This document shows, piece by piece, positions 7,714 to 64,000 of a DNA stretch of 64,000 nucleotides. This stretch comes from Dehalococcoidales bacterium (GTDB lineage: Bacteria > Chloroflexota > Dehalococcoidia > Dehalococcoidales > RBG-16-60-22). The stretch covers positions 2,117-66,116 of the forward strand of contig JAQTQH010000003.1 of the NCBI GenBank assembly GCA_028712355.1, given 5' to 3'. The translations under genes and the position numbers were made by a program. Position 1 is the stretch's first letter. Each line of letters begins with the position of its first letter. The notes beneath the pieces were generated by a model. It did no database searches. It saw only the letters and a program-made list of their open reading frames with translations, and was not told where the DNA came from.

Positions 7714-8123
7714 AATTATACCTTACCTAATGTAAACCAATTGTATGCCATGTTGAGTGAAAAGTCAAGTGCCCTTTTGGCTTTTTCAGGTACTTTTGAC
7801 GAAAAATATTTGATGTTGAGTAAAAGCTCAAAAACAGGCATGAAACATATCTGGGGAAATTGCGCAAAAGGTTCGGTCGGGGGGTTGATTAACCGGCAGT
7901 GCAGTTACTTTCCGGTCACCCCGGAATGGTTAATTAGTACGGGTTTAAAACGTAGATTGGCCGCTTTTCCTTAAGTTATAATTAACTTTCGGAGTAAAAT
8001 CGCATGCGTCCGGGAAGGAGCGCATGTTTTTAAAAAGTATATTCGGGATGGGTTGAAATTTATGCTTTGTTTACCTTCATGGTGTTAATCTGGGCGTGAA
8101 AAGTAGAGCGCAGGAGATATACC

Positions 8124-8738
8124 TTGAGTACTTTAAGTAAAGGACGCTTTGGTGAGGAACTCGCCGGGCCTCTGGCAAATGTTGTCGTGGCGCGCCAGAA
8201 ATCGCCCTCGGAGAGAGGTTTTATTTTTCTGCTGGGGCAGGTCAAGAAGCTTTTCGACCTCGGTGCCGGCGATGATATCTACCAGTTTATCGCTTCGGCA
8301 TTACAGGAATTCCTCAATGCCGGCGTCGTGCTGGCCAATGCCTATAACGAGGTGAAAAACACGCTCGACGTGCGGGGAGTGGCCGGGCTGGGCAGTTACA
8401 CGGAAAAGATTTTGCACATGATAGGCAGCAACCCGGCGGAAATATCGACGTTGGTGAGTGAGGCATGCCGCCAGGGGCTGTCCGCCGGGAGGTTGACCAT
8501 CCTCGCCGACGGTGTTTACGAGCTGGCCAATCACACTATGCCGTTGATAGTGTGCCGGAACCTGGAAGAGCTGCTCGGCATCAGGTTTGTTTATGCGATG
8601 GGCTTGACCTGGCATGAGAAGCTGCTGGGCAGCGTGGCTTTTTTGAACCGGGAGGAAATCCGTGATCCCGCCGTAGTCGAGACTTTTTTGAACTATGCGG
8701 CGCTGGCAATCCGCCAGCGTATGGAAAAAGAAAGCTGA
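8124..8738 (+). CDS. GAF-like domain protein (tentative)
   Basis: 204-aa ORF with a TTG start 7 nt after AGGAG (8112-8116). C-terminal half has GAF-like layout (LLGSVAFLNREEI...ETFLNYAALAIRQR). Followed by a terminator. Confidence 0.4.
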   Translation: MSTLSKGRFGEELAGPLANVVVARQKSPSERGFIFLLGQVKKLFDLGAGDDIYQFIASALQEFLNAGVVLANAYNEVKNTLDVRGVAGLGSYTEKILHMIGSNPAEISTLVSEACRQGLSAGRLTILADGVYELANHTMPLIVCRNLEELLGIRFVYAMGLTWHEKLLGSVAFLNREEIRDPAVVETFLNYAALAIRQRMEKES

Positions 8739-8768
8739 CGGTATAATTTAGATTTTTTACAGGGACGA

Positions 8769-8801
8769 AAAGCCTCCGGAAACGGGGGCTTTAGTTTTTT
8801 T
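8769..8801 (+). terminator. rho-independent terminator
   Basis: AAAGCCTCC-GGAAAC-GGGGGCTTT followed by AGTTTTTTT, 30 nt after the stop at 8738. Confidence 0.55.
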
Positions 8802-8836
8802 GCCGGGATGTGTAGCTTTGTCTTCAATTCGGTCTC

Positions 8837-8856
8837 TGTTGGCAATTTGTTAGCAG
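8837..8856 (+). repeat. left copy of 20-bp direct repeat TGTTGGCAATTTGTTAGCAG
   Basis: Matches 12294..12313 at 19 of 20 positions in the same orientation. Lies at the left edge of the lower-GC segment. Confidence 0.6.
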
Positions 8857-9223
8857 GTGAGTTATCAAGTAGCAGCTTTAGGTATTCATAGAATTAACAT
8901 AAATTGTTTTCTCGTCATTTAATACTTACAAGTATATAAACTTTTCCGTGCCCTATAAAAATGCACTGATATCTTCATAATCAGTAACTGGTAAACATCT
9001 AGTGTCGGCAGTCCAGTGGCAAGAGCGGCAGGAAATAATTCCCTTAGTATTGTAACTGTAGCATAATTATATAGTACTATGACGTTGGTACTATGAATAT
9101 AAGGTTGATGTTGCAATTTGATTTAGGCTAGAATTAAAAACACGTATAAAAAATTTATCATCTCATGATATACCGTTGATTGTTATCCTGTAGCCGTTTG
9201 CGGTGCCGGCAAATCCGTGATAT

Positions 9224-10966
9224 TTGGGGGACGTAGTAATAGGCGCTTATTATTATTTTTACCATTCCGCGATGATAATATCGCTCTTGGTATGCTCGTC
9301 AACAATAGTACTAACGTGGCCGCGCCGTCATGTTCCGGGAGCAGCTGCAATGTTAGCGTTGGCTGCTGCCACGTTCATCTGGACCCTGGGTTTTTATCTT
9401 GAGGCTAATAGCTACACCCTTGAGGGGCAGTTGTTTTTCAACAACATCGGCTACGTTGGGTCTATGAGTGTTTCGGTAGCATGGTTGGTCTTTTCTCTTA
9501 ATTACACAAGTGATTACTCATGGATGACTGGACGTAAATTAATCCTCCTTTGCGTTGTCCCGCTGACATCCTTAATATTGGTCTGGACTAACGAATGGCA
9601 TCATCTCATGTGGTATGATGCGCATCTGGCCACAACCGGATCTTTTACGGTGACAGTAAAGACCTATGGGATATTCTTCTGGATAGCGCTAGCCTATAAT
9701 TACACCCTCATTGTTACCGGGGTTTTCATACTCATACGGAGATTATTTGTCGGAATACCTCTGTATACGAGGCAAGGTATTTCACTGGTAGTAGCCATTA
9801 GTTTGCCACTGATATGGAATATCATATTCGTATTCGACTTGTTGCCCTTGCCGAGAAAAGATTTGACTCCGGTAACGTTTGCGATTTCAGGATTGATAAT
9901 CATTATTGGTGTGATGCGTTTGCAGTTATTCAGGGCGATACCATTTGTCCGGGAATTAATCGTTCAGCAAGTGTCCTCCGGAGTGCTGGCTTTCAACAAT
10001 GATGGCCGTTTGCTGGAAGCAAACCAGGCTGCGTTAAGGATATTTGGAGAAAGCAAGGGCATTATTGGCAAACCGTTAGAACAGCTACTCTCCTTATCCC
10101 CGGTGCTGAAAAATCTGCGCTCAAACGTGGAAGGTGGTACTGTGCAGCTACCGCTGGCGACATCAGGAGAGGAACGTTTATACGAAATGGAGACGACGCC
10201 AATGCGAGATAGGCATGACCGGCAACTGGGATGGCTGGTCATTTTACGGGACATCACCGAAGTGAAAAGAATGCAGGAACAACTCGTAGCTCAAGACCGT
10301 CTGGCTTCTATTGGGGAGTTTACCGCCGGGATCGCCCATGAGCTTAATAACCCTCTCAGCAACATCATCGGCTTCTCAGAACTTCTGCGTAAACGTGAAG
10401 TCTCTTCTGACATTAAGGCTGACCTGGATATCGTTAGTAAAGAGGCAGAGCGGGCAGCCAGGATAGCAGACAACCTCCTTATCTTTTCACGGAACGAACA
10501 GGGCGATAAATTACCCATTGATGTCAACAAAATCCTGCGGAAGACGCTGGAATTGCGCGCCTACGAACAGAAAACAAACAATGTCCAGACAATCTTTCGT
10601 TTATCTAATGACCTGCCTGAAGTAATTGGGGACGCTATCCAGCTACAGCAGGTATTTCTCAATATTATTGTTAATGCCGAATTCTTTATGATTGAGGCGC
10701 ACGGGAAGGGCACGCTAACTATCGTGACTGAGCAAGCGGATGAACATGTCAAGATTATCTTTAAGGACGACGGCCCCGGGATTCCTCAAGAGAACATATC
10801 ACGTCTTTTTAACCCATTTTTCACGACAAAGGAAGTGGGGAAGGGGACGGGGCTCGGCTTAAGCATCTGTTATGGGATAGTAACCGGACATGGCGGTAGA
10901 ATATGGGCTGACAGTAAACCCGGGGAAGGCGCCACTTTTATTGTGGAATTACCCATTAATAAATAA
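9224..10966 (+). CDS. sensor histidine kinase (N-terminal multi-TM sensor, PAS, HisKA, HATPase_c)
   Basis: H-box IAHELNNPLSNIIG, N-box QQVFLNIIVNAEFF, G1 DDGPGI, G2 GKGTGLGLSI. About 7 hydrophobic helices in the first 230 aa. TTG start at 9224; alternative ATG at 9272. Confidence 0.9.
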   Translation: MGDVVIGAYYYFYHSAMIISLLVCSSTIVLTWPRRHVPGAAAMLALAAATFIWTLGFYLEANSYTLEGQLFFNNIGYVGSMSVSVAWLVFSLNYTSDYSWMTGRKLILLCVVPLTSLILVWTNEWHHLMWYDAHLATTGSFTVTVKTYGIFFWIALAYNYTLIVTGVFILIRRLFVGIPLYTRQGISLVVAISLPLIWNIIFVFDLLPLPRKDLTPVTFAISGLIIIIGVMRLQLFRAIPFVRELIVQQVSSGVLAFNNDGRLLEANQAALRIFGESKGIIGKPLEQLLSLSPVLKNLRSNVEGGTVQLPLATSGEERLYEMETTPMRDRHDRQLGWLVILRDITEVKRMQEQLVAQDRLASIGEFTAGIAHELNNPLSNIIGFSELLRKREVSSDIKADLDIVSKEAERAARIADNLLIFSRNEQGDKLPIDVNKILRKTLELRAYEQKTNNVQTIFRLSNDLPEVIGDAIQLQQVFLNIIVNAEFFMIEAHGKGTLTIVTEQADEHVKIIFKDDGPGIPQENISRLFNPFFTTKEVGKGTGLGLSICYGIVTGHGGRIWADSKPGEGATFIVELPINK

Positions 10967-11041
10967 TCATTTGCAGAGAGATTAAAATAGTGACCAAATA
11001 TTATTACACACAAGCCAAAGTGAAGAGCAGGAGGGTGACAA

Positions 11042-11440
11042 GTGGACCTGAATCAAACGATATTGGTTGTTGACGATGAGCAATTCACTTTACAATTACT
11101 TAAAAGGATATTGGAAGGGGATAATTATAAAGTACTAACTGCAACCAGCGGAGACGAAGCGCTCAAGATACTATCCTCCAGTGAGGTACATATGGTTTTG
11201 CTGGATATAAGGATGCCTGGAATGAATGGCTATGAGACTCTTGAGCGTATCCGGGAAAAATGGAACATTCCTGTAATAATGGCTACTGCTGTAGGTGAAG
11301 TATCATCTTCAGTTAAATCTCTTACACTGGGCGCAGATGACTATATTAGAAAACCGTTCAGCCAGCAAATCTTGTTATCTCGTGTGAGAGCGAAGTTACG
11401 CCGGGCTGGCTCTTATAATAATCAAAATGAACTGAATTAG
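11042..11440 (+). CDS. stand-alone response-regulator receiver (CheY-like)
   Basis: LVVDDE, phospho-acceptor context VLLDIRMPGMNG, and KPF near the C-terminus. No output domain. GTG start. Confidence 0.9.
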   Translation: MDLNQTILVVDDEQFTLQLLKRILEGDNYKVLTATSGDEALKILSSSEVHMVLLDIRMPGMNGYETLERIREKWNIPVIMATAVGEVSSSVKSLTLGADDYIRKPFSQQILLSRVRAKLRRAGSYNNQNELN

Positions 11441-11496
11441 TCATTGCTGATATAGAAGGGCTCCGTTATGGAACCTGCTAGCCTTATCTGTATTCC

Positions 11497-11695
11497 ATGC
11501 CTGGTTGGGCGAAATATAAAGCACAAAACAACGTTAAGTCAAAAGCTCATACCCGATGGCTAGGCTCTGCGTTTAAACTTTCTCGATACCTATAGCCACG
11601 TAGCCCCAGGACTTCAAGAAGCTGCTGCTAATCGTTTTGACGATGTTCTTAGCAACAAATCTAAAATGGACAATGCCACAACCATGCATAAGTGA
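11497..11695 (+). pseudogene. 3-prime remnant of a tyrosine recombinase (phage-type integrase) gene
   Basis: Frame 11564..11695 reads ALRLNFLDTYSHVAPGLQEAAANRFDDVLSNKSKMDNATTMHK-stop, the C-terminal catalytic-Tyr box. A shifted frame (11497..11595) reads ...NVKSKAHTRWLGSAFKL, like the preceding LGHS segment. No upstream body of the gene exists. Confidence 0.55.
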
Positions 11696-11751
11696 CACAC
11701 CTGTGCTATAATTGCGAAAAAATAATCTATGGCTAATCAAGGAGGCCAACA

Positions 11752-12282
11752 ATGATTTATTGGGATTCTGGTGATGAGCGTGACTCTAAGCGTTCTCTTG
11801 GAATTAGAGACAAACAAATCCTATATCGTAATGCTAAGGGAAGATGCCAGAATCCTGGCTGCGGTAAGAAGATAGACTTCGATGAGATGGAAATCGGCCA
11901 CAAGACAGCTTGGTCAAGGGGAGGTATCACTACATTCAGAAACAGCGTCTGCCTGTGTCATAGGTGCAACAAGCTCCAAGGAACCGACAGCTGGGCTGTC
12001 TTTATGAAAAAGCAGAATATTAAAGACCCGAAGACCGAGTTAAAGGAGTCTCTGAAAAACCTCACTCTCCAGGAACTCAAGCTCCTTGCTGCAAAGCATA
12101 AAGTCAGAGTTGCGGGATACGTGGAAGAAGACTTGTTCTCCTCTCGAAGAGTAGCCCCGACCAAATCGCAGTATATCACCAAATTATCTAAGGTCGTGAC
12201 TGATTCAGATTTGCGTTCTCGCCCTAAACCACCGCCAAAGCCGAAGAGAAGAGCACGAAGAAAATCAGACAGTTGGTGGTAA
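11752..12282 (+). CDS. HNH endonuclease with SAP/HeH-like segment and basic C-terminal tail
   Basis: CQNPGCGKKIDFDEMEIGHKTAWSRGG...CLCHRCNKLQG. LTLQELKLLAAKHKVRV is SAP-like. Tail is PKPPPKPKRRARRK. AAGGAGG lies 6 nt upstream of the ATG. Confidence 0.85.
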   Translation: MIYWDSGDERDSKRSLGIRDKQILYRNAKGRCQNPGCGKKIDFDEMEIGHKTAWSRGGITTFRNSVCLCHRCNKLQGTDSWAVFMKKQNIKDPKTELKESLKNLTLQELKLLAAKHKVRVAGYVEEDLFSSRRVAPTKSQYITKLSKVVTDSDLRSRPKPPPKPKRRARRKSDSWW

Positions 12283-12293
12283 CCACTATCAGT

Positions 12294-12313
12294 TGTTAGC
12301 AATTTGTTAGCAG
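12294..12313 (+). repeat. right copy of 20-bp direct repeat TGTTAGCAATTTGTTAGCAG
   Basis: 19/20 identical to 8837..8856. Lies 58 nt from the 3-prime end of tRNA-Arg. Internally it is TGTTAGCA-N3-TGTTAGCA. Confidence 0.6.
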
Positions 12314-12318
12314 AATAG

Positions 12319-12358
12319 AAAAAGCCCCTGATTCGGTTATCCTTTTCGGGGGCTTTTT
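12319..12358 (+). terminator. rho-independent terminator after the HNH gene
   Basis: AAAAAGCCCC, 19-nt loop, GGGGCTTTTT. Confidence 0.5.
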
Positions 12359-12370
12359 AGCTTCAAAAAG

Positions 12371-12446
12371 TGGCGCGCCTGGGGGGATTCGAACCCACGA
12401 CCCTCGGTTCCGAAGACCGATGCTCTATCCACTGAGCTACAGGCGC
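12371..12446 (-). tRNA. tRNA-Arg (anticodon UCG)
   Basis: Hand-folded cloverleaf: acceptor GCGCCUG/CAGGCGC, D arm GCUC-AGUGGAUA-GAGC, anticodon arm UCGGU-CUUCGGA-ACCGA, T loop UUCGAAU, encoded CCA. Confidence 0.85.
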
Positions 12447-12534
12447 ACAAGCTCAATTATAGACGATAATACGGAAATTTGCACTGCACTTTTCACCCTC
12501 ATGTGGTATCATGTTTCCCTAAGGAGGTGCGCCC

Positions 12535-12846
12535 ATGTTCAAAGTCGTCTCCATCTGGAACCTGCGCCCCGGCGTGAGCATCGAGGAAGCGGAAAAGCAG
12601 TACTACGAAGAGCATATCCCCCTGGCACAGAAAATCCCCGGCTTGCGCAAATACACCATCGGTAAAGGCAGGGGTAAAGACCGCCCGTACTACCGCATTG
12701 CGGAGCTCTACTTCGCTGATAAGGACGCCATGAACGCCGGCTTCGCTTCTCCGCAAGGCAAGGCGGTCATCGCCGACCACGGCTTCGTCTCGCGCATCGC
12801 GGACAGAATCGTCATGTACTTCGATGAAGAGGAGGTCAAACTATAA
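12535..12846 (+). CDS. EthD-family protein
   Basis: 103 aa. MFKVVSIWNLRPGVSIEEAEKQYYEEHIPLAQKIPGLRKYTIGK... matches the EthD/TIGR02118 pattern. Confidence 0.75.
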   Translation: MFKVVSIWNLRPGVSIEEAEKQYYEEHIPLAQKIPGLRKYTIGKGRGKDRPYYRIAELYFADKDAMNAGFASPQGKAVIADHGFVSRIADRIVMYFDEEEVKL

Positions 12847-13280
12847 TGGCAGAAGATAAGATGGTAAAGGCCTGGCAGAAATTTCAGGACATCACCGGCT
12901 ATACCGATGAAGAGATGGCGATTTTCAAGGCGAATCCCCGTTTCATGAAAATGATGGCGACTCCTGCCTTCCGCACGCATAAAATTATCGTCGATGTGGT
13001 CGAATCGCACGGATGCATCTGTCAGCACAAGGTAGGGCAGCGCATCGTCATCAGCGGCAACGGCGCCCTCGTCAGCGCGGAGTGCCCGCCCATCATGTGC
13101 CTCGGGCTGGTCAACCAGCTCTACCCGGTTGCGGTAGCGGTCTTCGAACGCTTCGCCGCCGACCTTGACCCGAACGGTTTGCTGTTCGATTCTATCGGCT
13201 GCTCGGATGTGGGCGTCAAGTGCGGGGGATGGGGACGCGTGCTCGTGAAAATACACGTCGAGGGACCGGAGAAGAAATAG
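12846..13280 (+). CDS. TIGR04076-like Cys-rich protein
   Basis: ATG overlaps the preceding stop (TAATG). Cys pattern HGCICQHKVGQ...ECPPIMC...IGCSDVGVKCGGWG resembles TIGR04076. Confidence 0.5.
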   Translation: MAEDKMVKAWQKFQDITGYTDEEMAIFKANPRFMKMMATPAFRTHKIIVDVVESHGCICQHKVGQRIVISGNGALVSAECPPIMCLGLVNQLYPVAVAVFERFAADLDPNGLLFDSIGCSDVGVKCGGWGRVLVKIHVEGPEKK

Positions 13281-13283
13281 GGA

Positions 13284-13362
13284 TGGGGTGAGTGGTGGGA
13301 TTTGAACCCACGCTCTCCAGGGCCACAACCTGGCGCCTTAGACCGGCTGGGCTACACTCACC
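13284..13362 (-). tRNA. tRNA-His (anticodon GUG)
   Basis: Hand-folded: encoded G-1, acceptor GUGAGUG/CACUCAC, discriminator C, anticodon arm CCAGG-UUGUGGC-CCUGG, T arm GUGGG-UUCAAAU-CCCAC, CCA. Confidence 0.8.
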
Positions 13363-46850: not shown

Positions 46851-49304
46851 CTACTTCACCACGTAGTTCAGCAGCTTTCCCGGTACGTAAATTACCTTGA
46901 TGGTCTGCTTGCCTTCCAGATGGGTTTTGACCCGCTCGCTGCTCTCGGCAGCCTGGTGTGCCTCAGCCTCGGTAATCGCGGGGGATACTTCGATGCGGTC
47001 GCGTACCTTGCCGTTGACCTGTACCACGAGCGTAACTTTTTCATCTTTGACCAGCGCCTTGTCCCATGCGGGCCAGCGCTGGTTGTGGATGCTGTAAGCG
47101 TTCCCGGTACGCTGCCATAGCTCCTCGGTCAAATGCGGTGCGGAGGGTGCCAGCAGCAGCAGGATAGTTCGTACTGACTCCTGCCATTGTTCAGGATTGA
47201 CCGCACCGGTTTCCTTTACTTTGGTCAGATAATTGGAATATTCCATCAACGCCGCCAGCATGGTGTTGAAGCGCAGGTGCTCCATGTCCTCGGAGACCTT
47301 CTTGATGGTCTGGTGGGTGATGCGGGCGAGCTCGCGTCCGCCGTTCGCGGCGTCGGCGTCTCCAGCTTTGCTTTGATACTCCTCCAGCGCCAGGTTCCAG
47401 ATACGGTTAAGCCAGCGGCTCATACCGCTGATACCGCTGTCGTTCCACTCGCCGCCCTGTTCCCAGGGGCCGACGAACATCAGGTAGGCGCGCACGGTAT
47501 CTGCGCCCAGCTCGGAGACGTATTTATCCGGCGTGACGACGTTGCCGCGGGACTTGCTCATCTTCTGCTTGTTGGCGATGATGGTGCCCTGGTTAAACAG
47601 CTCGGTAAACGGCTCGTCGAAGTCCAGCATCCCCAAATCACGCAGCACTTTAGTGAAGAAACGGGCGTAGAACAGGTGCATCACGGCATGTTCCGCGCCG
47701 CCGGTGTAGATATCGACGGGCATCCAGTATTTCATCTTCGCCGGGTCGAAAGGCCCCGGTTTATAGCCGGGGCTGGTATAGCGGTAGTAGTACCACGAGG
47801 AGCACATGAAAGTATCCAGCGTATCGGTCTCGCGTTTGGCGGGTCCGCCGCACTTCGGGCATTTCGTGTTGACGAATTTTTCGTTATATTTCAGCGGCGA
47901 TTCGCCGGTGGGCTTGAATTCGGCGTCTTCCGGCAGCAGCAACGGCAGGTCTTTTTCCGGCACCGGCACGATGCCGCACTTATCGCAGTAGATGACTGGA
48001 ATCGGCGCCCCCCAGTAGCGCTGGCGGGAGATGAGCCAGTCGCGCAGCTTGTAGCTGGTGGTGCGCTTGCCCCACCCCTGCTTTTCCAGGTACTCGGAGA
48101 CCGCGGTAATTCCCGGCTCACTGGGCAGGCCGTTGAACTGCCCGGAATTGACCATCTTACCCGGCTCGATGTAAGCCTGCTCCAGTTCGCCGCCGTTCCA
48201 ATCGGGCGGGGCGATGACGACCCGGATGGGTATGTTATATTTTTTGGCGAAGGCGAAGTCGCGCTCGTCATGGGCGGGCACTGCCATTACCGCGCCGGTG
48301 CCGTAGCTGAGCAGCACGTAATCGCCAATCCAGATAGGCACCTTTTCCCCGTTGACGCGGTTGATGCAGTACGCCCCGATGAAGACGCCGTCCTTTTCCC
48401 TTTCCGTGGAAAGGCGCTCGATTTCCGTCTGGCGGCGTGACTTGGCGATATAGGCTTCCACCTCGGCTTTTTTGTCGGGAGTGGTCAGCTTCGCCACCAG
48501 CGGGTGCTCCGGCGCCAGCGCCATGAAGGTTACGCCGTAGACGGTATCGGGCCGGGTGGTGAAGATGCGGATTTCTTTTTCCGGCACGCCGGGGTAGTCC
48601 AGCTCGAAGGCAATCTCGGTGCCCTGGCTCTTGCCTACCCAGTTGTGCTGCATGATTTTAATTTTTTCGGGCCAGTCGATGCCGAGGTGGTCTTTCAGTT
48701 CGTCGGCATATTTAGTAATTCGGAAGAACCACTGCTCGAGGTCGCGCCGGGTAACCGGCGTGCTGCAGCGCTCGCAGACGCCCTCATCGACGACCTGCTC
48801 GTTCGCCAGCACGGTCTGGCACTGGGGACACCAGTTGACCGGCGCCTTGCGGCGGTAAGCCAGCCCCGCCTCGTGCAGCTTGAGGAAGAACCACTGCGTC
48901 CATTTGTAATATTCCGGCAGACAGGTGATGACCTCGCGGCTCCAATCATAAATCGCGCCGATGCTCTTGAGTTGCTTGCGCATGTTCTCGATGTTGCGCA
49001 TCGTCCAGGTGTAGGGGTGGATGCCGCGCTTGATGGCGGCGTTTTCCGCGGGAAGCCCGAAGGAATCAAACCCCTGCGGGTGCAGCACGTTATAGCCCTG
49101 CAGCCGCTTAAAGCGGGCATAGACATCGGCGGGCGCCATGGCATACCAGTGCCCGATGTGCAAATCACCGGAGGTGTAGGGGAACATGGTGAGGGCATAC
49201 CACTTGGGTTTCGCGGGGTCTTCGGTCACTTCGTAAAGTTTATCGGCTTCCCATTTCTGCTGCCATTTCGGCTCGATTTCCTGCGGGTTGTATTTGTCCA
49301 TCAT
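46851..49304 (-). CDS. leuS: leucine--tRNA ligase
   Basis: HIGH-type LHIGHWY and KMSKS motifs. Start set at the ATG at 49304, 8 nt after AGGAG; the ORF track starts at GTG 49313. Confidence 0.97.
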   Translation of the reverse strand: MMDKYNPQEIEPKWQQKWEADKLYEVTEDPAKPKWYALTMFPYTSGDLHIGHWYAMAPADVYARFKRLQGYNVLHPQGFDSFGLPAENAAIKRGIHPYTWTMRNIENMRKQLKSIGAIYDWSREVITCLPEYYKWTQWFFLKLHEAGLAYRRKAPVNWCPQCQTVLANEQVVDEGVCERCSTPVTRRDLEQWFFRITKYADELKDHLGIDWPEKIKIMQHNWVGKSQGTEIAFELDYPGVPEKEIRIFTTRPDTVYGVTFMALAPEHPLVAKLTTPDKKAEVEAYIAKSRRQTEIERLSTEREKDGVFIGAYCINRVNGEKVPIWIGDYVLLSYGTGAVMAVPAHDERDFAFAKKYNIPIRVVIAPPDWNGGELEQAYIEPGKMVNSGQFNGLPSEPGITAVSEYLEKQGWGKRTTSYKLRDWLISRQRYWGAPIPVIYCDKCGIVPVPEKDLPLLLPEDAEFKPTGESPLKYNEKFVNTKCPKCGGPAKRETDTLDTFMCSSWYYYRYTSPGYKPGPFDPAKMKYWMPVDIYTGGAEHAVMHLFYARFFTKVLRDLGMLDFDEPFTELFNQGTIIANKQKMSKSRGNVVTPDKYVSELGADTVRAYLMFVGPWEQGGEWNDSGISGMSRWLNRIWNLALEEYQSKAGDADAANGGRELARITHQTIKKVSEDMEHLRFNTMLAALMEYSNYLTKVKETGAVNPEQWQESVRTILLLLAPSAPHLTEELWQRTGNAYSIHNQRWPAWDKALVKDEKVTLVVQVNGKVRDRIEVSPAITEAEAHQAAESSERVKTHLEGKQTIKVIYVPGKLLNYVVK

Positions 49305-58049: not shown

Positions 58050-58125
58050 GGGGCTGTAGCTCAGTTGGGAGAGCGTCTGACTGGCAGTCAGAAGGTAAGG
58101 GGTTCGAACCCCCTCAGCTCCACCA
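58050..58125 (+). tRNA. tRNA-Ala (anticodon GGC)
   Basis: Acceptor GGGGCUG/CAGCUCC with G3:U70. D arm GCUC-AGUUGGGA-GAGC. Anticodon loop CUGGCAG. T arm AGGGG-UUCGAAC-CCCCU. Discriminator A, then CCA. Confidence 0.9.
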
Positions 58126-58412
58126 AAGGGGACGATACCTAGAACTACCCGAAATTCCAAAGATTGGCCGGGTAAAGTCTTTTCAATAACCTTCCCATGG
58201 TCTGTTACGAAATAAACCTCTCAACAGAGCTAATGCCCGTCTCTTTCGAGTCCTCCATGTTCCGCCGATGCGATCTCATCATGCGAAGTCGGACAGGGGC
58301 TCAATCGAAACGACACGCTCGATTTAAATCCATTGACCCTGAGTATTTTATCAATTAAGAGAATTTTCAGGTACAAAGGGCTAGCCGTGTCCAGTCCCAT
58401 TCGTGTTCCGTT

Positions 58413-60146
58413 TCACTTGCGGCTCTGTCGTCTCATGTGTTCCACGGCTTTGGCAAAATCAGGCTTCTCGGCTGCTTTTCTCCATTCATCCCAGAAGGCA
58501 ATAGTTGAACTAATCGGTTTCTCCTTTGGGGGATTCACCCTGATACGGCTCGGAAGTAGGACACAGTCTCCAACAACGAGTACTTCCCCCGTGTCAAGGA
58601 TTGGCAGCGCATCCATTAACCCTGCCAAACTTTCGGGCATCAGCCTTTTAACCGTGCCTTGGTCATCGCCATTTGTCAGCCGAAGAGCGAGAAGGTTGTT
58701 ACACTGACTCAGTATTGTAGTACTCACATCGGAAGGTCGCTGGCTGACGACTACCATTGCCACGCCGTATTTTCGTCCTTCTTTTGCGATCTTCTCGAAG
58801 TTCTCGATTGCCCTTTGCTCTACAGGATTCTGACCTTCTTTATTAGGCAAGTAGACATGGGCTTCGTCACAAACAAGAGCCAGCGGCTTACGTACATTTA
58901 CTTCAGTCCAGAATTGAACCTGATAGACGACTCGTGCCACAAGTCCGACCATAACTGGCAGTATATCTGCTGGCACTTCGGAGAAATCTATGACTCTGAT
59001 TCGGGATTCGGAAAAGTCCATCAGCCGGCATATCATTTTCGCCATAGCATCGTATGTCTGCTCCGTTGTGGGGATCTGAAAGAGAAAACCGTAACGCTTG
59101 TCATCCCGTTTGCTTTGTAGACGGATGAGCAAGCGGCTGAACTGTCCGTAAAATACTCCTTGCTTCTCTCCGCCTCTTGCACCAGGAACCATCTCATCAT
59201 TAAGACGTCTCAATTCGGAGATGACATTTTCAAACGGAAATGGAATCGGGCTATCAAGAGTGAGAGCACTCAACATCTCGGTCTTTCCTTCAGCCTCAAG
59301 GAACGCCTTCTTTTGAGACAACACTGCATCTTGGAAAGCCATGACCTGATTGTGAGCAGTAAATTCACTTCGGTCAATGAACATGGATTGTGACTCTTCA
59401 GCATTTAGCAGCCAGTATGGTAAATAGAGTAACTCATTGGCTGCCGTTCCGAGTTCCTCCGGACCAGGAACCCGAAGATGACTCGCATATGTGAGCCTAC
59501 TGTACTCACCATGCAGATCAAAGACGATCAGATTTGAGGAAGGCAGCTTAGCGGCTTGCTCCAAAATTGCTGCCACCAACCAAGATTTGCCAGAACCTGT
59601 GCTGCCGAGCAACGAAGCGTGGCGTTGAAAGAGCCTATTGCCATCTAGGTATGCTACAGCTTTCTCATCCATTGTGTAATGTCCCATCTCTAAAGAATGC
59701 TCGGTCTTGCTTTCGACTGATAGTAAATTCATGAATGCCTGCAATTGAGCGTCCCTTAAGACGTTGCACCCACAGTCTATCTCAGGTACTTGGAAAATGG
59801 ATCGGCTAAAGCACGGTTTCTGTCCTGCATCAAGCGCCACCCTCCCAACCAGGGTGACTCTGACGGTGTTGAGCACACTTTCGCGCGGCATTGCCAATTC
59901 CGCACCTTCGGCCTCCATAGGTACAGCCTGCTCGATTGTTTCCTCCATCACAGGCGACTTCATAACGCTGTCAATCATTCCAATGAGCCATTCCTCGATG
60001 GCACCCGGAAGGCGAAGCGCTACAAGTTGACCTACCCGGGCTCTTCGCAGTTCTTCATCCTTATCAACTTGAATACTGACTCTTCTCGTGTCTACCGCAC
60101 GAACTCGTCCAAGGGCATATGACTGGTCGAAGGTAAAAATCGCCAT
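58413..60146 (-). CDS. herA: HerA-family (FtsK/HerA) ATPase, partner of SIR2
   Basis: N-terminal barrel-like segment (GRVRAVDTRRVSIQVD...VGQLVALRL). Walker A LLGSTGSGKSW, Walker B LALVCDEAH, VVSQRPSDV. Starts 3 nt after the SIR2 stop. Confidence 0.85.
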   Translation of the reverse strand: MAIFTFDQSYALGRVRAVDTRRVSIQVDKDEELRRARVGQLVALRLPGAIEEWLIGMIDSVMKSPVMEETIEQAVPMEAEGAELAMPRESVLNTVRVTLVGRVALDAGQKPCFSRSIFQVPEIDCGCNVLRDAQLQAFMNLLSVESKTEHSLEMGHYTMDEKAVAYLDGNRLFQRHASLLGSTGSGKSWLVAAILEQAAKLPSSNLIVFDLHGEYSRLTYASHLRVPGPEELGTAANELLYLPYWLLNAEESQSMFIDRSEFTAHNQVMAFQDAVLSQKKAFLEAEGKTEMLSALTLDSPIPFPFENVISELRRLNDEMVPGARGGEKQGVFYGQFSRLLIRLQSKRDDKRYGFLFQIPTTEQTYDAMAKMICRLMDFSESRIRVIDFSEVPADILPVMVGLVARVVYQVQFWTEVNVRKPLALVCDEAHVYLPNKEGQNPVEQRAIENFEKIAKEGRKYGVAMVVVSQRPSDVSTTILSQCNNLLALRLTNGDDQGTVKRLMPESLAGLMDALPILDTGEVLVVGDCVLLPSRIRVNPPKEKPISSTIAFWDEWRKAAEKPDFAKAVEHMRRQSRK

Positions 60147-60149
60147 AAT

Positions 60150-61295
60150 CTAGCCTCCTATGATCACCTTCTTGAATTCGGCCACGTCCCATAGCGCGGA
60201 ATTCTCTATGTAGAGGGTCCCCGCGTACCGAGAGTTGGATATCGATGTCTGTTCGGGCGCTCCAGTGCCTTTGCAGACTAGCCAAAGGTTGGGTGCCGCA
60301 TCTAATATAGTCTTAATACGTTGGTTGGAATCTTTGGTGATAATCAAACCATGGCTCGATTGTTCGATTAGCTTACGCCTGATGTACCGCTCGAGGTGAA
60401 CGTCATTAAATCCATATCCTAAGAAGAGAAACCGGCTTTCTTTTTCGATCGCATCATCTGCTCGCTGAAGAAGTTCCTGCCTGTACAACTGTAGCTTCTC
60501 GTGCTTGGAGACGCCAGGTGTTATCATGACCCTCTGGAGAAAGCTTGGCGGATTGAGCGCCCATTCGTTGTTCTCGACGACCTTCGTCCCAAAGGTAAAG
60601 TAATTTAGCGAACCATGGACCTTGTAAAGCCTGATGTGTTTCCGGACGGCATACAAGTGTCTTACTCGATTCGACACCACACTTCGAGTACTCACCCACA
60701 TGGATTGCTCTGCTGCATGCCAATCGACTGTGCGCATGACACCACCTGAGAACCCGTTTGTGTATGGTATGCCTATGTGTTCACAGGCGTGTTCCATTAC
60801 AAGGTCGTAATTAGGAGTGATTACGTTGAGGACAGGATCAGCCTCGGGTAGCGTATCCACCAAGACTTTCAATAGTGTACCGGCTGGCCACTCATTCTGG
60901 CCATCGACTACTTTGAGGCAACAATCATAACTTACTGCAGATATGAACCTACCAGTTGCTTCTGTAATCTTCTCCACTAGGCTTTGGTCAAGGACTCCAT
61001 TCATGGCGGACTCAAGGTCTTGACCTTTGTACAGTGCATCTGCGACTGCCTCCCATTCCCGTTTCTCTGGGGCGCTTACGAGTAAAGGGGGGACTCTGTC
61101 AACCAGTACCTTGGCCAATTCGTGCATACTAAAGCGGTCATCGAGTGCACAGGACATCCCGCTTCCGAAGAGCACTACAGGCTTCTCCCGAAAGAAGTTC
61201 TTTAATGCCTCGAAGGCTATTTCTTTTGTCAAAGCCTCGCGAGCATAAACCACTATCAGCCTCCGAGAGCCTTTGCCAATGATGCTTCGGCTCAT
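60150..61295 (-). CDS. SIR2-like (SIR2_2 family) NADase-type defence protein
   Basis: VVLFGSGMSCA, ITPNYDLVMEH, KVHGSLNY and FLFLGYGFNDVHL motifs. ATG at 61295 preferred over GTG at 61367, which would leave only 26 bp to the divergent gene. Confidence 0.8.
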   Translation of the reverse strand: MSRSIIGKGSRRLIVVYAREALTKEIAFEALKNFFREKPVVLFGSGMSCALDDRFSMHELAKVLVDRVPPLLVSAPEKREWEAVADALYKGQDLESAMNGVLDQSLVEKITEATGRFISAVSYDCCLKVVDGQNEWPAGTLLKVLVDTLPEADPVLNVITPNYDLVMEHACEHIGIPYTNGFSGGVMRTVDWHAAEQSMWVSTRSVVSNRVRHLYAVRKHIRLYKVHGSLNYFTFGTKVVENNEWALNPPSFLQRVMITPGVSKHEKLQLYRQELLQRADDAIEKESRFLFLGYGFNDVHLERYIRRKLIEQSSHGLIITKDSNQRIKTILDAAPNLWLVCKGTGAPEQTSISNSRYAGTLYIENSALWDVAEFKKVIIGG

Positions 61296-61305
61296 TTTAA
61301 TGGTT

Positions 61306-61329
61306 GACCGTCCTTGAGACAAGACGGTC
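61306..61329. promoter_or_regulatory. inverted repeat GACCGTC-N10-GACGGTC in the divergent control region
   Basis: Perfect 7-bp arms. Lies between the SIR2 start (61295) and a TATAAT box (61354-61359) that precedes the wHTH gene. Confidence 0.4.
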
Positions 61330-61393
61330 TTTATTTTCCGTTCTGCCAAGTAGTATAATGCAATCACTAACGTTAATACAAGGATATTAGTTA

Positions 61394-61615
61394 ATGATTA
61401 CAAACGGGACTGATAAGACCGCCTTTACGCACAAAGTTAAAAAAATACTGACTAAAGAACCAGGGTTAAGCGTAAAGGAATTATCGGATAGATTGAGTAC
61501 CAACCGCCAGTTTATGGCCGGCATGCTGAAGGCTCTTGAGGAGCGCGGAGAGGTTACTTATCGTCAGGTGGGGCCGGCACGTATTTATTACGCCACTAAT
61601 TCTCCTAAGGAATAA
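61394..61615 (+). CDS. small winged-helix DNA-binding protein (candidate controller/regulator)
   Basis: 73 aa. LSVKELSDRLSTNRQFMAGMLKALEERGEVTYRQVGPARIYY has helix-turn-helix plus beta-wing layout. AAGGA lies 8 nt upstream. Confidence 0.6.
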   Translation: MITNGTDKTAFTHKVKKILTKEPGLSVKELSDRLSTNRQFMAGMLKALEERGEVTYRQVGPARIYYATNSPKE

Positions 61616-61651
61616 CAACCTAGTATCTTCGAGGTCTAACTGAGAGAATAG

Positions 61652-62506
61652 ATGTTAATTGTATTATCACAGCGAATTGATATTAAGTCTGATTACGATG
61701 ATGTCCCGTTTTCGTCATATCACTTCCCGAAACAGTACCGAAATCTTATTCATTCAGGGGATCGATTTATCTATTACCAAGGCGACCGTTGGAAGAAAGA
61801 GCATCGCTACTATTTCGGCTGCGGAGTAATAGGTAAGGTGTATTCTGCTGCCAACAACACGTTTTACGCAGACATCGTCGATGGCGAGACTTTCGCTCAA
61901 AAGGTTCCAATTTATCATCCAGAAGGTGATTTCTACGAATCACTCGATTACAGCAGCGTGCGAAAAAAGCCGAATCCACCTTGGCAAAGTTCTATAAGAC
62001 CATTGTCTGAAACAGCTTTCTCCACAATTCTAGCAGCCGCTAAAGTTGGTACATCTTCATTGCAGGTTATCAGTCAAATTGAAACTTCTTCGAATGCGAT
62101 TGATACGTTAAGGACTCTGAATATTTTATATGCCGGATTGAAGCCGGAAGTTCGGGCAAAGAGGCTGGCCAGCCACCTGGACCGTGGTGATTCGGTTACA
62201 CGAGCTCTAAAGCAACTTCTTGGTAGCAAATGTCAAATATGTGGTTGGAACGGTTTCAGAAAACGAGATGACACGGAATTCATCGAGGCTCACCATCTGG
62301 TTCAGATATCCGAGCGTCATGTAGATTCACTTTGCACAGAGAATATCATACTCGTGTGTCCTAACTGTCATCGTGAAATTCACTATGGAGAAGATATAGA
62401 GATTAGAGACGATGGCAATTTGAATTTTGTGCGTCTTTCAAACAAGATTGTACGTATACCGAAAAACACAATTCAATTATTAGAGAGTAAGGTCATTTTA
62501 CATTGA
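61652..62506 (+). CDS. HNH nuclease with unassigned ~135-aa N-terminal domain
   Basis: C-terminal CQICGWNG...FIEAHHLVQIS...NIILVCPNCHREIHYG (McrA-type HNH). N-terminus YHFPKQYRNLIHSGDRFIYYQGDR...YYFGCGVIGKV matches no motif I recognise. Confidence 0.8.
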   Translation: MLIVLSQRIDIKSDYDDVPFSSYHFPKQYRNLIHSGDRFIYYQGDRWKKEHRYYFGCGVIGKVYSAANNTFYADIVDGETFAQKVPIYHPEGDFYESLDYSSVRKKPNPPWQSSIRPLSETAFSTILAAAKVGTSSLQVISQIETSSNAIDTLRTLNILYAGLKPEVRAKRLASHLDRGDSVTRALKQLLGSKCQICGWNGFRKRDDTEFIEAHHLVQISERHVDSLCTENIILVCPNCHREIHYGEDIEIRDDGNLNFVRLSNKIVRIPKNTIQLLESKVILH

Positions 62507-63321
62507 GTCGTATAACGAGCCTAAATGGTAACTTAAACGGTAAGTTGATGAAAGAAGCAGTCAATATTAATCAGCTATTAGATGGTTTCCAGTTGGAGAT
62601 AATCAGCCAGACTATTTTGGAATGGTGGAACTCCTCGGGCAGACGGAATTTCCCTTGGAGAGAGACTCATGACCCCTTTAAAGTCATGATTGCAGAAATA
62701 TTACTCCACCGAACAAGAGCTGAACAGGTTGTTCCACTGTACCAAGTTTTTATAAAGAAATATTCTGATGTTCATGCAATCGCGCGAAGCTCGCCAGATG
62801 AGCTCGAAGAATCGTTTCGTTCTGCTGGACTTCATTGGAGATGGAAACTACTCCACGCTATGTCTATTGATATTGAAACGAGATTTAATGGACAGATACC
62901 TCATGATTTTGAAGATCTGACATCACTACTAGGTGTGAGTCATTATATCGCCTCTGCCGTGAGATGTTTTGCCTTTGGTTATCCTGATGTTTTACTCGAT
63001 ACTAATACCGTCAGAGTGTCGGGACGTATCTTTGGATTACCTATTACGGACTCATCCAGACGAAGTATTTTATTCAGGAAGGTCATTCAAAGGCTTATGG
63101 ATGCTGAACAGTGCAGCGACTTCAATTTTGCACTGATTGATTTTGCAGCGAAGGTGTGTCGACTAAAGAAACCTCACCATGACGAGTGCCCCATTTGCGA
63201 ATCCTGCGTCTTTTACCAGAAAATAGCCGGTGTAAATAAGAATACTAAAATTAATACAACACCACTAAAAGAGATAAGACGCTCGCACCAGCAACAATTG
63301 AGCCATATGGAGGCTCTGTAG
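62503..63321 (+). CDS. HhH-GPD DNA glycosylase (EndoIII/MutY/Mig family) with Fe-S Cys cluster
   Basis: FPWRETHDPFKVMIAEILLHRTRAEQV. HhH LLGVSHYIASAVRCFAFG. Catalytic-Asp context LLDTNTVRV. CRLKKPHHDECPICESC. TTG start overlaps the HNH stop (TTGA); alternative ATG at 62548. Confidence 0.85.
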   Translation: MSRITSLNGNLNGKLMKEAVNINQLLDGFQLEIISQTILEWWNSSGRRNFPWRETHDPFKVMIAEILLHRTRAEQVVPLYQVFIKKYSDVHAIARSSPDELEESFRSAGLHWRWKLLHAMSIDIETRFNGQIPHDFEDLTSLLGVSHYIASAVRCFAFGYPDVLLDTNTVRVSGRIFGLPITDSSRRSILFRKVIQRLMDAEQCSDFNFALIDFAAKVCRLKKPHHDECPICESCVFYQKIAGVNKNTKINTTPLKEIRRSHQQQLSHMEAL

Positions 63322-63322
63322 T

Positions 63323-64000
63323 ATGAAGCACACAATTCCGGTCATTGACCTATTTGCCGGGCCAGGGGGTCTAAGCGAAGGATTTAGCTGCTTTCGAGAT
63401 GATTCAGGAAAGAATCCCTTCAACGTTGTCCTATCTATAGAAAAGGACCCTATTGCTCATCAAACGCTAGAGTTGAGGAGTTTCTTCCGATTTCTTGACC
63501 GAGAGTCGGATGCATATGATTATTTCAGGTATCTACGCAGGGAAATTACTAAAGAGGAACTCTTTAAGAAGCACCAAGAACAGGCTATCAAGGCAAAAGC
63601 TGCTTGTTGGATGGCAGAGCTAGGTAGCCCAGACCTTGCATATTCGACGGTGAAGAGCCGCATAAACTCAGCGATTGGCAAGAGTGCGTTGTGGCTCCTT
63701 ATTGGAGGGCCTCCTTGCCAGGCATATTCAGTAATTGGCCGTGCCCGTGTAAGAAGTGTTGAACCTAAACAATATGAGAACGATAATCGTCATTTCCTAT
63801 ACAAAGAATACCTTAAAATAGTAGCAGACTATTCCCCTCCCATGTTTCTTATGGAAAACGTCAAAGGGTTGCTTTCCACCCAAGTAAACGGTCTCAATAT
63901 GTTTGCAAAAATCGTGAAAGACCTCGAGGCCCCCGGCGTGGCAATCGCTGGAAGGAAGTCGAATGATCCTACTGTGAAATATGAAATATTCTCATTATCA
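63323..64000 (+). CDS. DNA (cytosine-5)-methyltransferase (partial; runs off window end)
   Basis: Not in the ORF track because it is open-ended. My translation: MKHTIPVIDLFAGPGGLSEGF (motif I), LLIGGPPCQAYS (motif IV), FLMENVKGLLS (motif VI). The ATG lies 1 nt after the glycosylase stop. Confidence 0.9.
   Translation, partial: MKHTIPVIDLFAGPGGLSEGFSCFRDDSGKNPFNVVLSIEKDPIAHQTLELRSFFRFLDRESDAYDYFRYLRREITKEELFKKHQEQAIKAKAACWMAELGSPDLAYSTVKSRINSAIGKSALWLLIGGPPCQAYSVIGRARVRSVEPKQYENDNRHFLYKEYLKIVADYSPPMFLMENVKGLLSTQVNGLNMFAKIVKDLEAPGVAIAGRKSNDPTVKYEIFSLS

Follow-up and report, generated by a model that had tools for sequence, protein, structure and literature searches.

We describe here positions 58126-64000 of a 64,000-nucleotide (nt) stretch of DNA (the window) from a Dehalococcoidales bacterium (GCA_028712355.1, contig JAQTQH010000003.1), a metagenome-assembled genome (MAG). 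The region starts directly after a tRNA-Ala(GGC) gene, and every gene in it has a defence or DNA-modification function. On the minus strand lies a SIR2-HerA pair; diverging from it on the plus strand is an operon whose first genes encode a winged-helix protein, an EVE-like-HNH nuclease, a Mig-type glycosylase and a C5 cytosine DNA methyltransferase, and which continues past the window edge into genes for MzaB, MzaC, MzaD and MzaE. The features are listed below in window numbering, which for positions beyond 64000 is carried on along an overlapping contig, L001.

58050..58125, plus strand: tRNA-Ala(GGC), intact and with a CCA end (ARAGORN; Rfam tRNA, 67.7 bits), the left border of the island.
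58126..58412: non-coding spacer of 287 nt between the tRNA and the HerA stop codon.
58413..60146, minus strand: HerA ATPase, 577 amino acids (aa) (Pfam DUF87, 6e-26; PADLOC PDLC04105, 7e-219, over residues 1-576).
60150..61253, minus strand: predicted SIR2-family NADase (Pfam SIR2_2, 4e-12; PADLOC PDLC04086, 7e-131).
61254..61393: shared divergent control region, from an alignment of the window with two related loci, L018 and L024.
61394..61615, plus strand: 73-aa winged-helix (MarR/ArsR-like) protein, a putative regulator (weak matches below the Pfam curated cut-offs, MarR_2 3e-5 and MarR 8e-5; PHROG transcription-regulator families).
61652..62506, plus strand: EVE-like-HNH nuclease, 284 aa (Pfam HNH PF01844, 2e-7; EcoKMcrA, 6ghc, 4e-10, residues 162-249).
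62503..63321, plus strand: MutY/Mig-type HhH-GPD glycosylase (Pfam HhH-GPD PF00730, 8e-8; PADLOC PDLC03398, 1e-36).
63323..64933, plus strand, crossing the window edge at 64000: C5 cytosine DNA methyltransferase, 536 aa (Pfam DNA_methylase PF00145, 9e-21 for the partial and 6e-47 for the full protein).
64933-72286, plus strand, beyond the window: MzaB, MzaC, MzaD and MzaE, then a hairpin terminator.
72408-72704 (L001), minus strand: 98-aa backbone gene (PF27050, phrog_1273) after the terminator, followed by the start of a 161-aa gene.

The character of the sequence shifts right after tRNA-Ala, as an earlier note on this DNA had reported from hand counts of G+C, all three of which are exact (20/60 at 61651-61710 and 29/60 at 59101-59160, against 36/60 at 47401-47460). 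Calculated along the sequence, the deviation spans the whole of 58126-64000. The G+C content is 0.460 there against 0.547 in 1-58049, below all upstream windows of the same length (z = -3.3), and the strand-symmetric tetranucleotide distance to the upstream sequence reaches 0.36-0.42, about three times the baseline of 0.10-0.15. The G+C content of third codon positions is 0.38-0.55 in the island genes and 0.67-0.71 in the genes for ClpB, DedA and a peptidyl-prolyl isomerase (PPIase). The functions which that note had assigned to the open reading frames (HerA, SIR2, winged helix, HNH, HhH-GPD and C5 methyltransferase) were all confirmed through Pfam, PADLOC or PDB sequence matches. Repeat and RNA-family searches of the spacer between the tRNA and HerA (58126-58412) gave no integrase remnant, repeat or RNA family match, and a blastn search of 58126-64000 against plasmids and phages returned just short HerA/ATPase matches of 65-77% identity.

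Gene order breaks at the same point. A scan of reference genomes with the DedA-like protein yielded 16 Dehalococcoidales/Chloroflexota loci, 11 of them with tRNA-Ala(GGC) downstream of the DedA-like gene, and ten were analysed. The left flank, ClpB-DedA-PPIase-tRNA-Ala(GGC), is syntenic in these ten Dehalococcoidales relatives (ClpB at most 92.7% identical, DedA in 10/10, PPIase in 7/10); right of the tRNA, none of the ten has a homologue of the island proteins, the left flank alone being comparable. Conservation of the gene order after tRNA-Ala, which would have spoken against the island proposed in the earlier note, is therefore absent from these relatives, and the break falls at the tRNA 3' end. 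In the closest relative (L002, ClpB 92.7% identical), alignment with the window loses homology 4 nt past the CCA end of the tRNA, and an enoyl-CoA hydratase gene and a two-component pair lie to the right. Other relatives carry recombinases at this position: a large serine recombinase gene begins 47 nt after tRNA-Ala in L012, L013 and L006, and a tyrosine integrase gene begins 67 nt after it in L007. Since recombinase genes abut the same tRNA-Ala in these relatives, tRNA-Ala(GGC) is a recurrent insertion hot spot in the lineage. In two of them a second copy of the last 14 nt of tRNA-Ala (CCCCAGCTCCACCA) follows at a distance of 77 nt downstream, within the 3' end of the gene for the serine recombinase (L012 3988-4078; L013 1326-1416), a repeat that may be the trace of an attachment site.

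The low-G+C sequence runs on past the window edge, bearing out the earlier view that the window cuts the island. An exact look-up of the glycosylase protein led to a 10.6-kb contig from run SRR22315508 (L001), which overlaps 62362-64000 with zero mismatches and carries the sequence on to position 72973, its G+C content staying at 0.43-0.47. The plus-strand operon thereby comprises eight genes from 61394 to about 72290, with intergenic gaps or overlaps of at most 36 nt, in the order winged-helix protein, EVE-like-HNH nuclease, Mig-type glycosylase, C5 methyltransferase, MzaB, MzaC, MzaD and MzaE, and a hairpin terminator follows MzaE. The methyltransferase has the motifs FAGPGG, GGPPCQ and ENV and matches best the PADLOC model DrmMII (8e-94; NCBIfam dcm, 5e-41). 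A PADLOC search for defence systems, which had been suggested together with the island, matched SIR2-HerA and all four Mza proteins: MzaB at 2e-87 (Pfam HATPase_c_3, a GHKL/MutL-like ATPase), MzaC at 2e-178 (Pfam Z1, a helicase), MzaD at 8e-22 (Pfam DUF4420, a PD-(D/E)XK nuclease) and MzaE at 1e-81 (Pfam AIPR). Because MzaB-E follow the HNH, glycosylase and methyltransferase genes in one operon, these three form the front of a methylation-linked Mza-type system. The earlier note had listed the three as single items; their identities stand, but they are not separate, belonging to the start of an eight-gene operon of which that note saw four genes.

Related systems have been described before. 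According to PMC9523054, Gao et al. (2020) discovered mzaABCDE and validated it. PMC9523054 further sets out a variant ('type II') with Z1, DUF4420, C5 methyltransferase, AIPR, a MORC ATPase and a regulator, and states that only a few related systems possess mzaA. Nuclease activity of MzaD has been reported in a preprint (bioRxiv 10.1101/2022.06.16.496414), and operons with MORC, Z1-helicase, DCM, Vsr and AIPR were described by Iyer, Abhiman and Aravind in 2008 (PMC2292703).

Beyond the terminator, the 98-aa and 161-aa genes are conserved in Dehalococcoidia and point to a mobile-element context. In L105, a Chloroflexota MAG, the pair recurs with 83% nucleotide identity and borders a DISARM-like operon. 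In L106 and L107, from Dehalococcoides mccartyi, it borders an operon containing a C5 methyltransferase, a DndH-like protein and an HhH-GPD glycosylase. There, a large serine recombinase lies about 4 kb away and is 60% identical to the L012/L013 recombinase that abuts tRNA-Ala. This backbone is also present in an IMG/VR provirus call (L108), where a sliding-clamp gene and an anti-restriction gene accompany it. As these backbone genes are common to the D. mccartyi serine-recombinase element, the island is, by analogy, probably the cargo end of such an element with a swappable defence slot, its recombinase lying beyond the available sequence. The gene pair occupies L001 10047-10612 (72408-72973), L105 9735-10296, L106 9057-10279 and L108 9421-10294; the defence cargo in the slot beside it varies between genomes, being Mza, DISARM, a DndH-like system, or unidentified genes, among them one for a phage-family endonuclease. 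A single family of mobile elements in Dehalococcoidia seems to use this slot as its cargo hot spot.

The minus-strand pair has the hallmarks of SIR2-HerA defence. HerA carries Walker A (GSTGSGKS) and Walker B (LVCDEAH) motifs and matches HerA chains in the PDB, including SIR2-HerA complex entries (8j4u), down to 5e-72, while the TPNYD and HGS motifs of SIR2 align to the PDB SIR2 chains 8yhx and 8j4u. The two genes are co-oriented, SIR2 ending 3 nt before the HerA start, and neither protein reaches the NCBIfam equivalog cut-offs. The SIR2 reading frame is open to 61367, and its likely start is the GTG at 61253, as suggested by the sequence context (GGAGG with a 6-nt spacer) and the 364-aa homologue in L018. 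Studied SIR2-HerA homologues are two-gene abortive infection systems in which a HerA-SIR2 complex destroys NAD+ on a phage trigger (PMC11514289, PMC11472057, PMC13434337). By analogy with these, the pair would form a complex destroying NAD+ upon phage infection.

Between the two operons lies a shared control region. The earlier note had put it at about 100 bp, and divergent operons with common non-coding DNA are indeed present, its length being 98-140 nt depending on the SIR2 start codon. A 49-nt leader within it (61345-61393), made up of TATAAT and then GCAATCACTAACGTTAATACAAGGATA with the perfect palindrome TAACGTTA, shows no difference between the window, L018 and L024. The matching leader lies at about 5890-5935 in L018 and about 6020-6065 in L024, where flanking DNA and proteins have diverged by 20-25%. 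From its sequence, the leader would be a promoter and TAACGTTA a candidate operator for the winged-helix protein, through which this protein would autoregulate the operon. A promoter/terminator scan showed no enrichment over shuffled sequence, and repeat and RNA-family searches of the control region found nothing. Homologues of the winged-helix protein, 78-79% identical, occupy the same position in L018 and L024. Its identification as MzaA was rejected, there being no match to the PADLOC MzaA profile.

The two related loci reveal how modular this arrangement is. L018 shares 86.6% nucleotide identity with 58383-63161 (HerA through glycosylase, homology beginning at 58383), with a HerA protein 98% identical; its MzaB-E are just 31-41% identical, its methyltransferase lies at the other end of the operon, and no tRNA occurs on the available 2.9 kb beyond HerA. 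L024 has the winged-helix, HNH, glycosylase and methyltransferase genes without SIR2-HerA, and an obligate linkage of SIR2-HerA to the Mza operon was rejected on this account. The SRR22315508 assembly breaks at 58171 (46 nt from the tRNA), 61372 (in the divergent control region) and 62362 (inside the HNH gene), which suggests strain variants of a mosaic locus within the sample.

The glycosylase (257-272 aa, with its start likely at the ATG at 62548) matches the full 221-aa length of Mig.MthI (PDB 1kea) at 2.6e-36 and MutY catalytic domains at 3e-37; the alignment reaches the MutY catalytic domain alone, and the MutY C-terminal (8-oxoguanine-recognition) domain is absent. Its catalytic Glu (in AEILL) and Asp (in LLDTN) align to E43 and D144 of BstMutY and are invariant in the family. 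Pocket residues were assigned by the residue mapping of PMC2714593 and comprise Ala (in TRA) at EcMutY V45, Phe (in FNFA) at Q182, Phe/Arg at L22/Q25, Arg at Q42 and Tyr at S120; these Mig-type features of a thymine pocket are kept in close homologues. The [4Fe-4S] loop (window 63150-63200) reads C-X6-H-X2-C-X5-C, keeping the canonical spacing C-X6-C-X2-C-X5-C, with His as second ligand in the window, L018, L024 and L025 and the canonical Cys in the more distant L035. In L026, L033, L041 and L043, Vsr (Pfam 1e-28 to 1e-31) fills the glycosylase slot beside the methyltransferase or HNH gene, and Vsr and Mig are mutually exclusive across the loci examined. This exchange in the same slot speaks for a function in the repair of T:G mismatches produced by deamination of 5-methylcytosine, and the enzyme is predicted to be a T:G (U:G) mismatch glycosylase. 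Two other assignments were rejected: MutY, on account of the missing C-terminal domain and the Mig-type pocket, and an HhH-GPD restriction glycosylase, since the exchange with Vsr argues for a repair role.

The HNH protein joins an N-terminal PUA-superfamily (EVE-like) domain of about 135 aa through a helical linker to a McrA-type HNH domain. The zinc cysteines and catalytic histidines of the latter are intact, with H214, H215, N231, H240, H244 and four Cys invariant or nearly so; in a 55-sequence alignment, the N-terminal domain is even more conserved than the HNH domain. An AlphaFold2 model (predicted local distance difference test score, pLDDT, 92.8) has VcaM4I, ScoMcrA, MJECL36, DrmA, the McrB N-domain and TagI as its best Foldseek matches, all of them PUA-superfamily modified-base readers or enzymes containing one. 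The gene lies beside a C5 methyltransferase and/or Mza genes in 13 of 23 full-length metagenome loci, or 13 of the 16 with informative flanks (those of the remainder being too short to judge), as well as in L018, L023 and the window.

The N-terminal domain and its partners also occur in other settings. In about 50 metagenome loci (L049-L103, e.g. L093 353-11479; several from the human gut), a DISARM variant consists of DrmE, a NERD-type helicase, DrmA, DrmB, a 339-aa protein and Vsr. Lying between DrmB and Vsr, the 339-aa protein has about 50% identity to the N-domain of the HNH protein over its first 136 residues; it has no HNH domain, and its C-terminal 200 residues gave no Pfam or PADLOC family match. 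L035 (2-10858) holds a C5 methyltransferase-linked cassette that ends in a Mig-like HhH-GPD glycosylase, followed by the EVE-like-HNH gene. The cassette proteins in L035 and L106 (10332-20279) measure 677 aa, 520 aa and 1849 aa (the last a HerA/DndH-like P-loop protein), and the cassette occurs in Dehalococcoides mccartyi.

Taken together, we read the region as the tRNA-proximal part of a horizontally acquired defence island of at least 14.8 kb that carries SIR2-HerA and an eight-gene, methylation-based Mza-type operon, with a probability of roughly 0.78. Its component systems and the kind of site it occupies are both known, and it is a fairly ordinary defence island. Composition, the synteny break and the recombinases of relatives uphold the earlier proposal of an island at the tRNA-Ala 3' end; its integration at the tRNA we infer, and it would have been the work of a recombinase beyond the available sequence. 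Several observations weigh against this reading. An integrase and a repeat of the tRNA end, for which the earlier note had proposed a downstream search, were sought as far as 72973 and neither appeared: Pfam, PADLOC and PHROG scans found no integrase or recombinase gene between 58126 and 72973, and k-mers of 11-14 nt on both strands gave no repeat of tRNA-Ala plus its 3' flank within these 14.8 kb. The right border lies beyond 72973, outside the sequence covered, and a homologue search with the 98-aa gene returned no longer contig of this strain. Recombinases of the relatives sit at the tRNA-proximal end, opposite (e.g. in L012) to the layout predicted for the island. Moreover, the junction of tRNA and island rests on a single MAG assembly: an exact HerA look-up led to an independent Logan contig of 3.2 kb (L104) that matches 58171-61372 at 100% and ends 46 nt from the tRNA, stopping short of it. 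Exact look-ups of ClpB, DedA and PPIase (two start codons) gave no record in the Logan collection, unlike island proteins; that of the HNH protein in the same collection gave no record either. As for the operon, PADLOC did not match the 73-aa winged-helix protein to MzaA, a small sigma-factor-like protein, and the original mzaABCDE lacks a methyltransferase, unlike the operon here. Lastly, the methyltransferase linkage of the EVE-like-HNH family is far above that of PUA-nucleases, fewer than 6% of which had methyltransferases nearby in a 2019 survey (PMC6765204), and a 5-methylcytosine-reading nuclease in one operon with a C5 methyltransferase is a potential self-conflict.

Some of these points would also fit a chimeric assembly, in which the MAG was mis-joined at the conserved tRNA-Ala to a low-G+C block from a different but related organism. 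The sequence comes from a MAG, its composition shifts precisely at a conserved gene of 76 nt, the Logan assembly of SRR22315508 breaks close to the junction and at two further points (58171, 61372 and 62362), and island proteins are on record in the collection where the exact ClpB, DedA and PPIase proteins are not. We nevertheless regard a chimera as highly improbable. Even the tRNA of the closest relative differs by 2 nt, and those of the other relatives show many more differences, so a mis-join would presuppose a near-identical genome in which the block likewise follows tRNA-Ala, and even then the block would be an island next to a tRNA. Strain heterogeneity at a variable hot spot would break the assembly graph as well, relatives carry unrelated cargo and recombinases at this very site, and the gene that follows the operon is Dehalococcoidia-specific. 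A more serious competitor, though one we hold at well under even odds, denies a single tRNA-targeted insertion: the locus could be a long-standing variable hot spot with cargo swapped by recombination, or the tRNA-proximal genes could be no more than the cargo end of a serine-recombinase element that is larger and has its attachment site elsewhere. The empty search for an integrase or attachment repeat speaks for it, as do the mosaic relationship to L018 (with its diverged MzaB-E, displaced methyltransferase and tRNA-free end), the operon of L024 without SIR2-HerA, and the changing neighbours of the 98-aa gene, which are Mza in this genome, a DndH-like system in D. mccartyi and DISARM in L105. 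Synteny, however, breaks exactly at the tRNA 3' end and recombinases abut that same tRNA in L012, L013, L006 and L007; moreover, cargo swapping and site-specific integration are mutually compatible, and the reading as a horizontally acquired, tRNA-proximal island remains our preferred one.

Within this island, the place of the EVE-like nuclease admits several readings. It could, tentatively, be the third member of a portable module with a DrmMII-type C5 methyltransferase and a T:G repair enzyme (Vsr or Mig), a module plugging into Mza here, DISARM in gut loci and a DndH-like system in L035, with the reader domain sensing methylation by the partner methyltransferase for self/non-self discrimination. 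If true, a methylation-sensing EVE-like nuclease would be the opposite of the usual view of PUA-nucleases. Alternatively, the HNH, glycosylase and methyltransferase genes would form a classical Type II restriction-modification unit (R, V, M) beside MzaB-E, the HNH enzyme cutting unmethylated sites and the N-domain serving for recognition. A C5 methyltransferase with Vsr and a restriction endonuclease is a common restriction-modification layout, and trios of methyltransferase, Vsr and HNH are adjacent in L026, L029, L031, L041 and L042. Constant methyltransferase linkage is also what would be expected of a modification-blocked enzyme and is atypical for modification-dependent PUA-nucleases (PMC6765204). 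Such a unit nonetheless seems unlikely: Mza genes are also present wherever flanks are long enough (L025, L026, L032-34, L041, L043, L018, L023), the HNH gene occurs at either cassette end and up to 8 kb from the methyltransferase (L033, L018), every fold match is to a modification-dependent enzyme or a reader of modified bases, and the same N-domain appears without HNH in DISARM operons. The nuclease might instead be an independent Type IV modification-dependent enzyme, co-located through the clustering of defence genes and giving complementary cover against phages with modified cytosines. This has about the same limited plausibility as the portable module. Its architecture resembles VcaM4I and its HNH domain EcoKMcrA, and homologues stand alone in L019/L027 and L030 or, in one case, beside a TIR gene (L021). 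A C5 methyltransferase, Vsr, Mig or Mza gene is, however, adjacent in 13 of the 16 full-length metagenome loci that are informative, and likewise in L018, L023 and the window, against <6% for PUA-nucleases; translation of the HNH gene is coupled, or almost coupled, to that of the glycosylase, and the gene lies inside an operon downstream of the shared regulator.

From the predicted activities of the eight-gene operon we infer a division of labour. The C5 methyltransferase would mark host DNA with 5-methylcytosine, and MzaB, MzaC, MzaD and MzaE would attack incoming DNA that lacks the mark. The Mig-type glycosylase would remove T from the T:G mismatches left by deamination of 5-methylcytosine, as Vsr would in sister cassettes. 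The EVE-like-HNH protein would read a flipped modified cytosine and cut the DNA; it would thereby cover phages with hypermodified cytosines, or else sense the methylation state on behalf of the operon.

The Dehalococcoidales are an uncultured, slow-growing group in which phage defence has been little studied; they now have a documented defence island comprising SIR2-HerA and a methylation-linked Mza-type system, and tRNA-Ala(GGC) is shown to be a variable insertion site in this lineage. The comparisons also provide two leads. In some bacterial defence operons, a Mig-type glycosylase appears to stand in for Vsr as protection against the deamination of 5-methylcytosine, and the EVE-like nucleases of one family are found in consistent linkage with C5 methyltransferases, contrary to the rule for PUA-nucleases, which bears on self/non-self discrimination in Mza and DISARM. 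Both are worthwhile to pursue, hold no surprise of principle and leave current understanding in place.

Elsewhere in the window, a second deviant patch lies at about 7001-12875 (G+C content 0.469, tetranucleotide distance 0.27), less deviant than the island and adjoining tRNA-Arg (12371-12446) and tRNA-His (13284-13361). It contains genes for a 7TM-PAS histidine kinase, a response regulator, two open reading frames without a family match and a 176-aa HNH protein (11752-12282); a homologue of this HNH gene (74.6% nucleotide identity) lies near HerA in L018.

Serine-recombinase genomic islands are a feature of Dehalococcoides genomes and include ssrA-targeted islands. The island resembles them in that its 98-aa and 161-aa genes also occur in a D. 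mccartyi element with a large serine recombinase at its end; it differs in that no recombinase is seen in its own genome up to 72973 and that its predicted orientation to the tRNA is the reverse of that in L012. With the SIR2-HerA systems of Paenibacillus, Staphylococcus and E. coli (types I-III), it has in common SIR2_2 followed by HerA (DUF87), full-length PADLOC matches, Walker A/B motifs, TPNYD and HGS. Its SIR2 is distant from the solved examples (PDB 1e-12; below the NCBIfam cut-off), its host belongs to the Dehalococcoidales, and the pair is divergently coupled to a second system through the 98-140 nt control region.

Compared with mzaABCDE and the system of PMC9523054, the operon has MzaB (GHKL), MzaC (Z1), MzaD (DUF4420) and MzaE (AIPR) in the same order, with a C5 methyltransferase and a small regulator as in the variant described there. 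In contrast, it shows no MzaA match and adds an EVE-like-HNH nuclease and a Mig-type glycosylase, of which no mention was found in those descriptions, that of mzaABCDE being taken in the form cited in PMC9523054. The MORC/paraMORC restriction-modification operons (PMC2292703) likewise contain a GHKL ATPase, a Z1-type superfamily II helicase, a novel nuclease of the restriction endonuclease fold, DCM, AIPR and often Vsr, and HNH partners are mentioned; in the island, an HhH-GPD glycosylase fills the Vsr slot and the HNH protein has an EVE-like reader domain. That protein shares its PUA-superfamily plus HNH architecture with the modification-dependent EVE-HNH endonucleases VcaM4I and TspA15I, VcaM4I being the best Foldseek match (6yex, 1.5e-6). 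Sequence identity to VcaM4I is 14% and the whole-chain TM-score (template modelling score) 0.34, owing to another domain arrangement; furthermore, this HNH family usually lies beside a C5 methyltransferase, PUA-nucleases rarely. The glycosylase, finally, resembles Mig.MthI (1kea) in having a MutY-like catalytic domain without the C-terminal domain, Mig-type pocket residues and a gene beside a C5 methyltransferase. The Mig.MthI gene is linked to M.MthTI on plasmid pFV1. Mig.MthI comes from a thermophilic archaeon and the present enzyme from a bacterium; the latter has His for Cys among its Fe-S ligands, and its gene forms part of a multi-gene Mza-type operon rather than of a simple restriction-modification pair.

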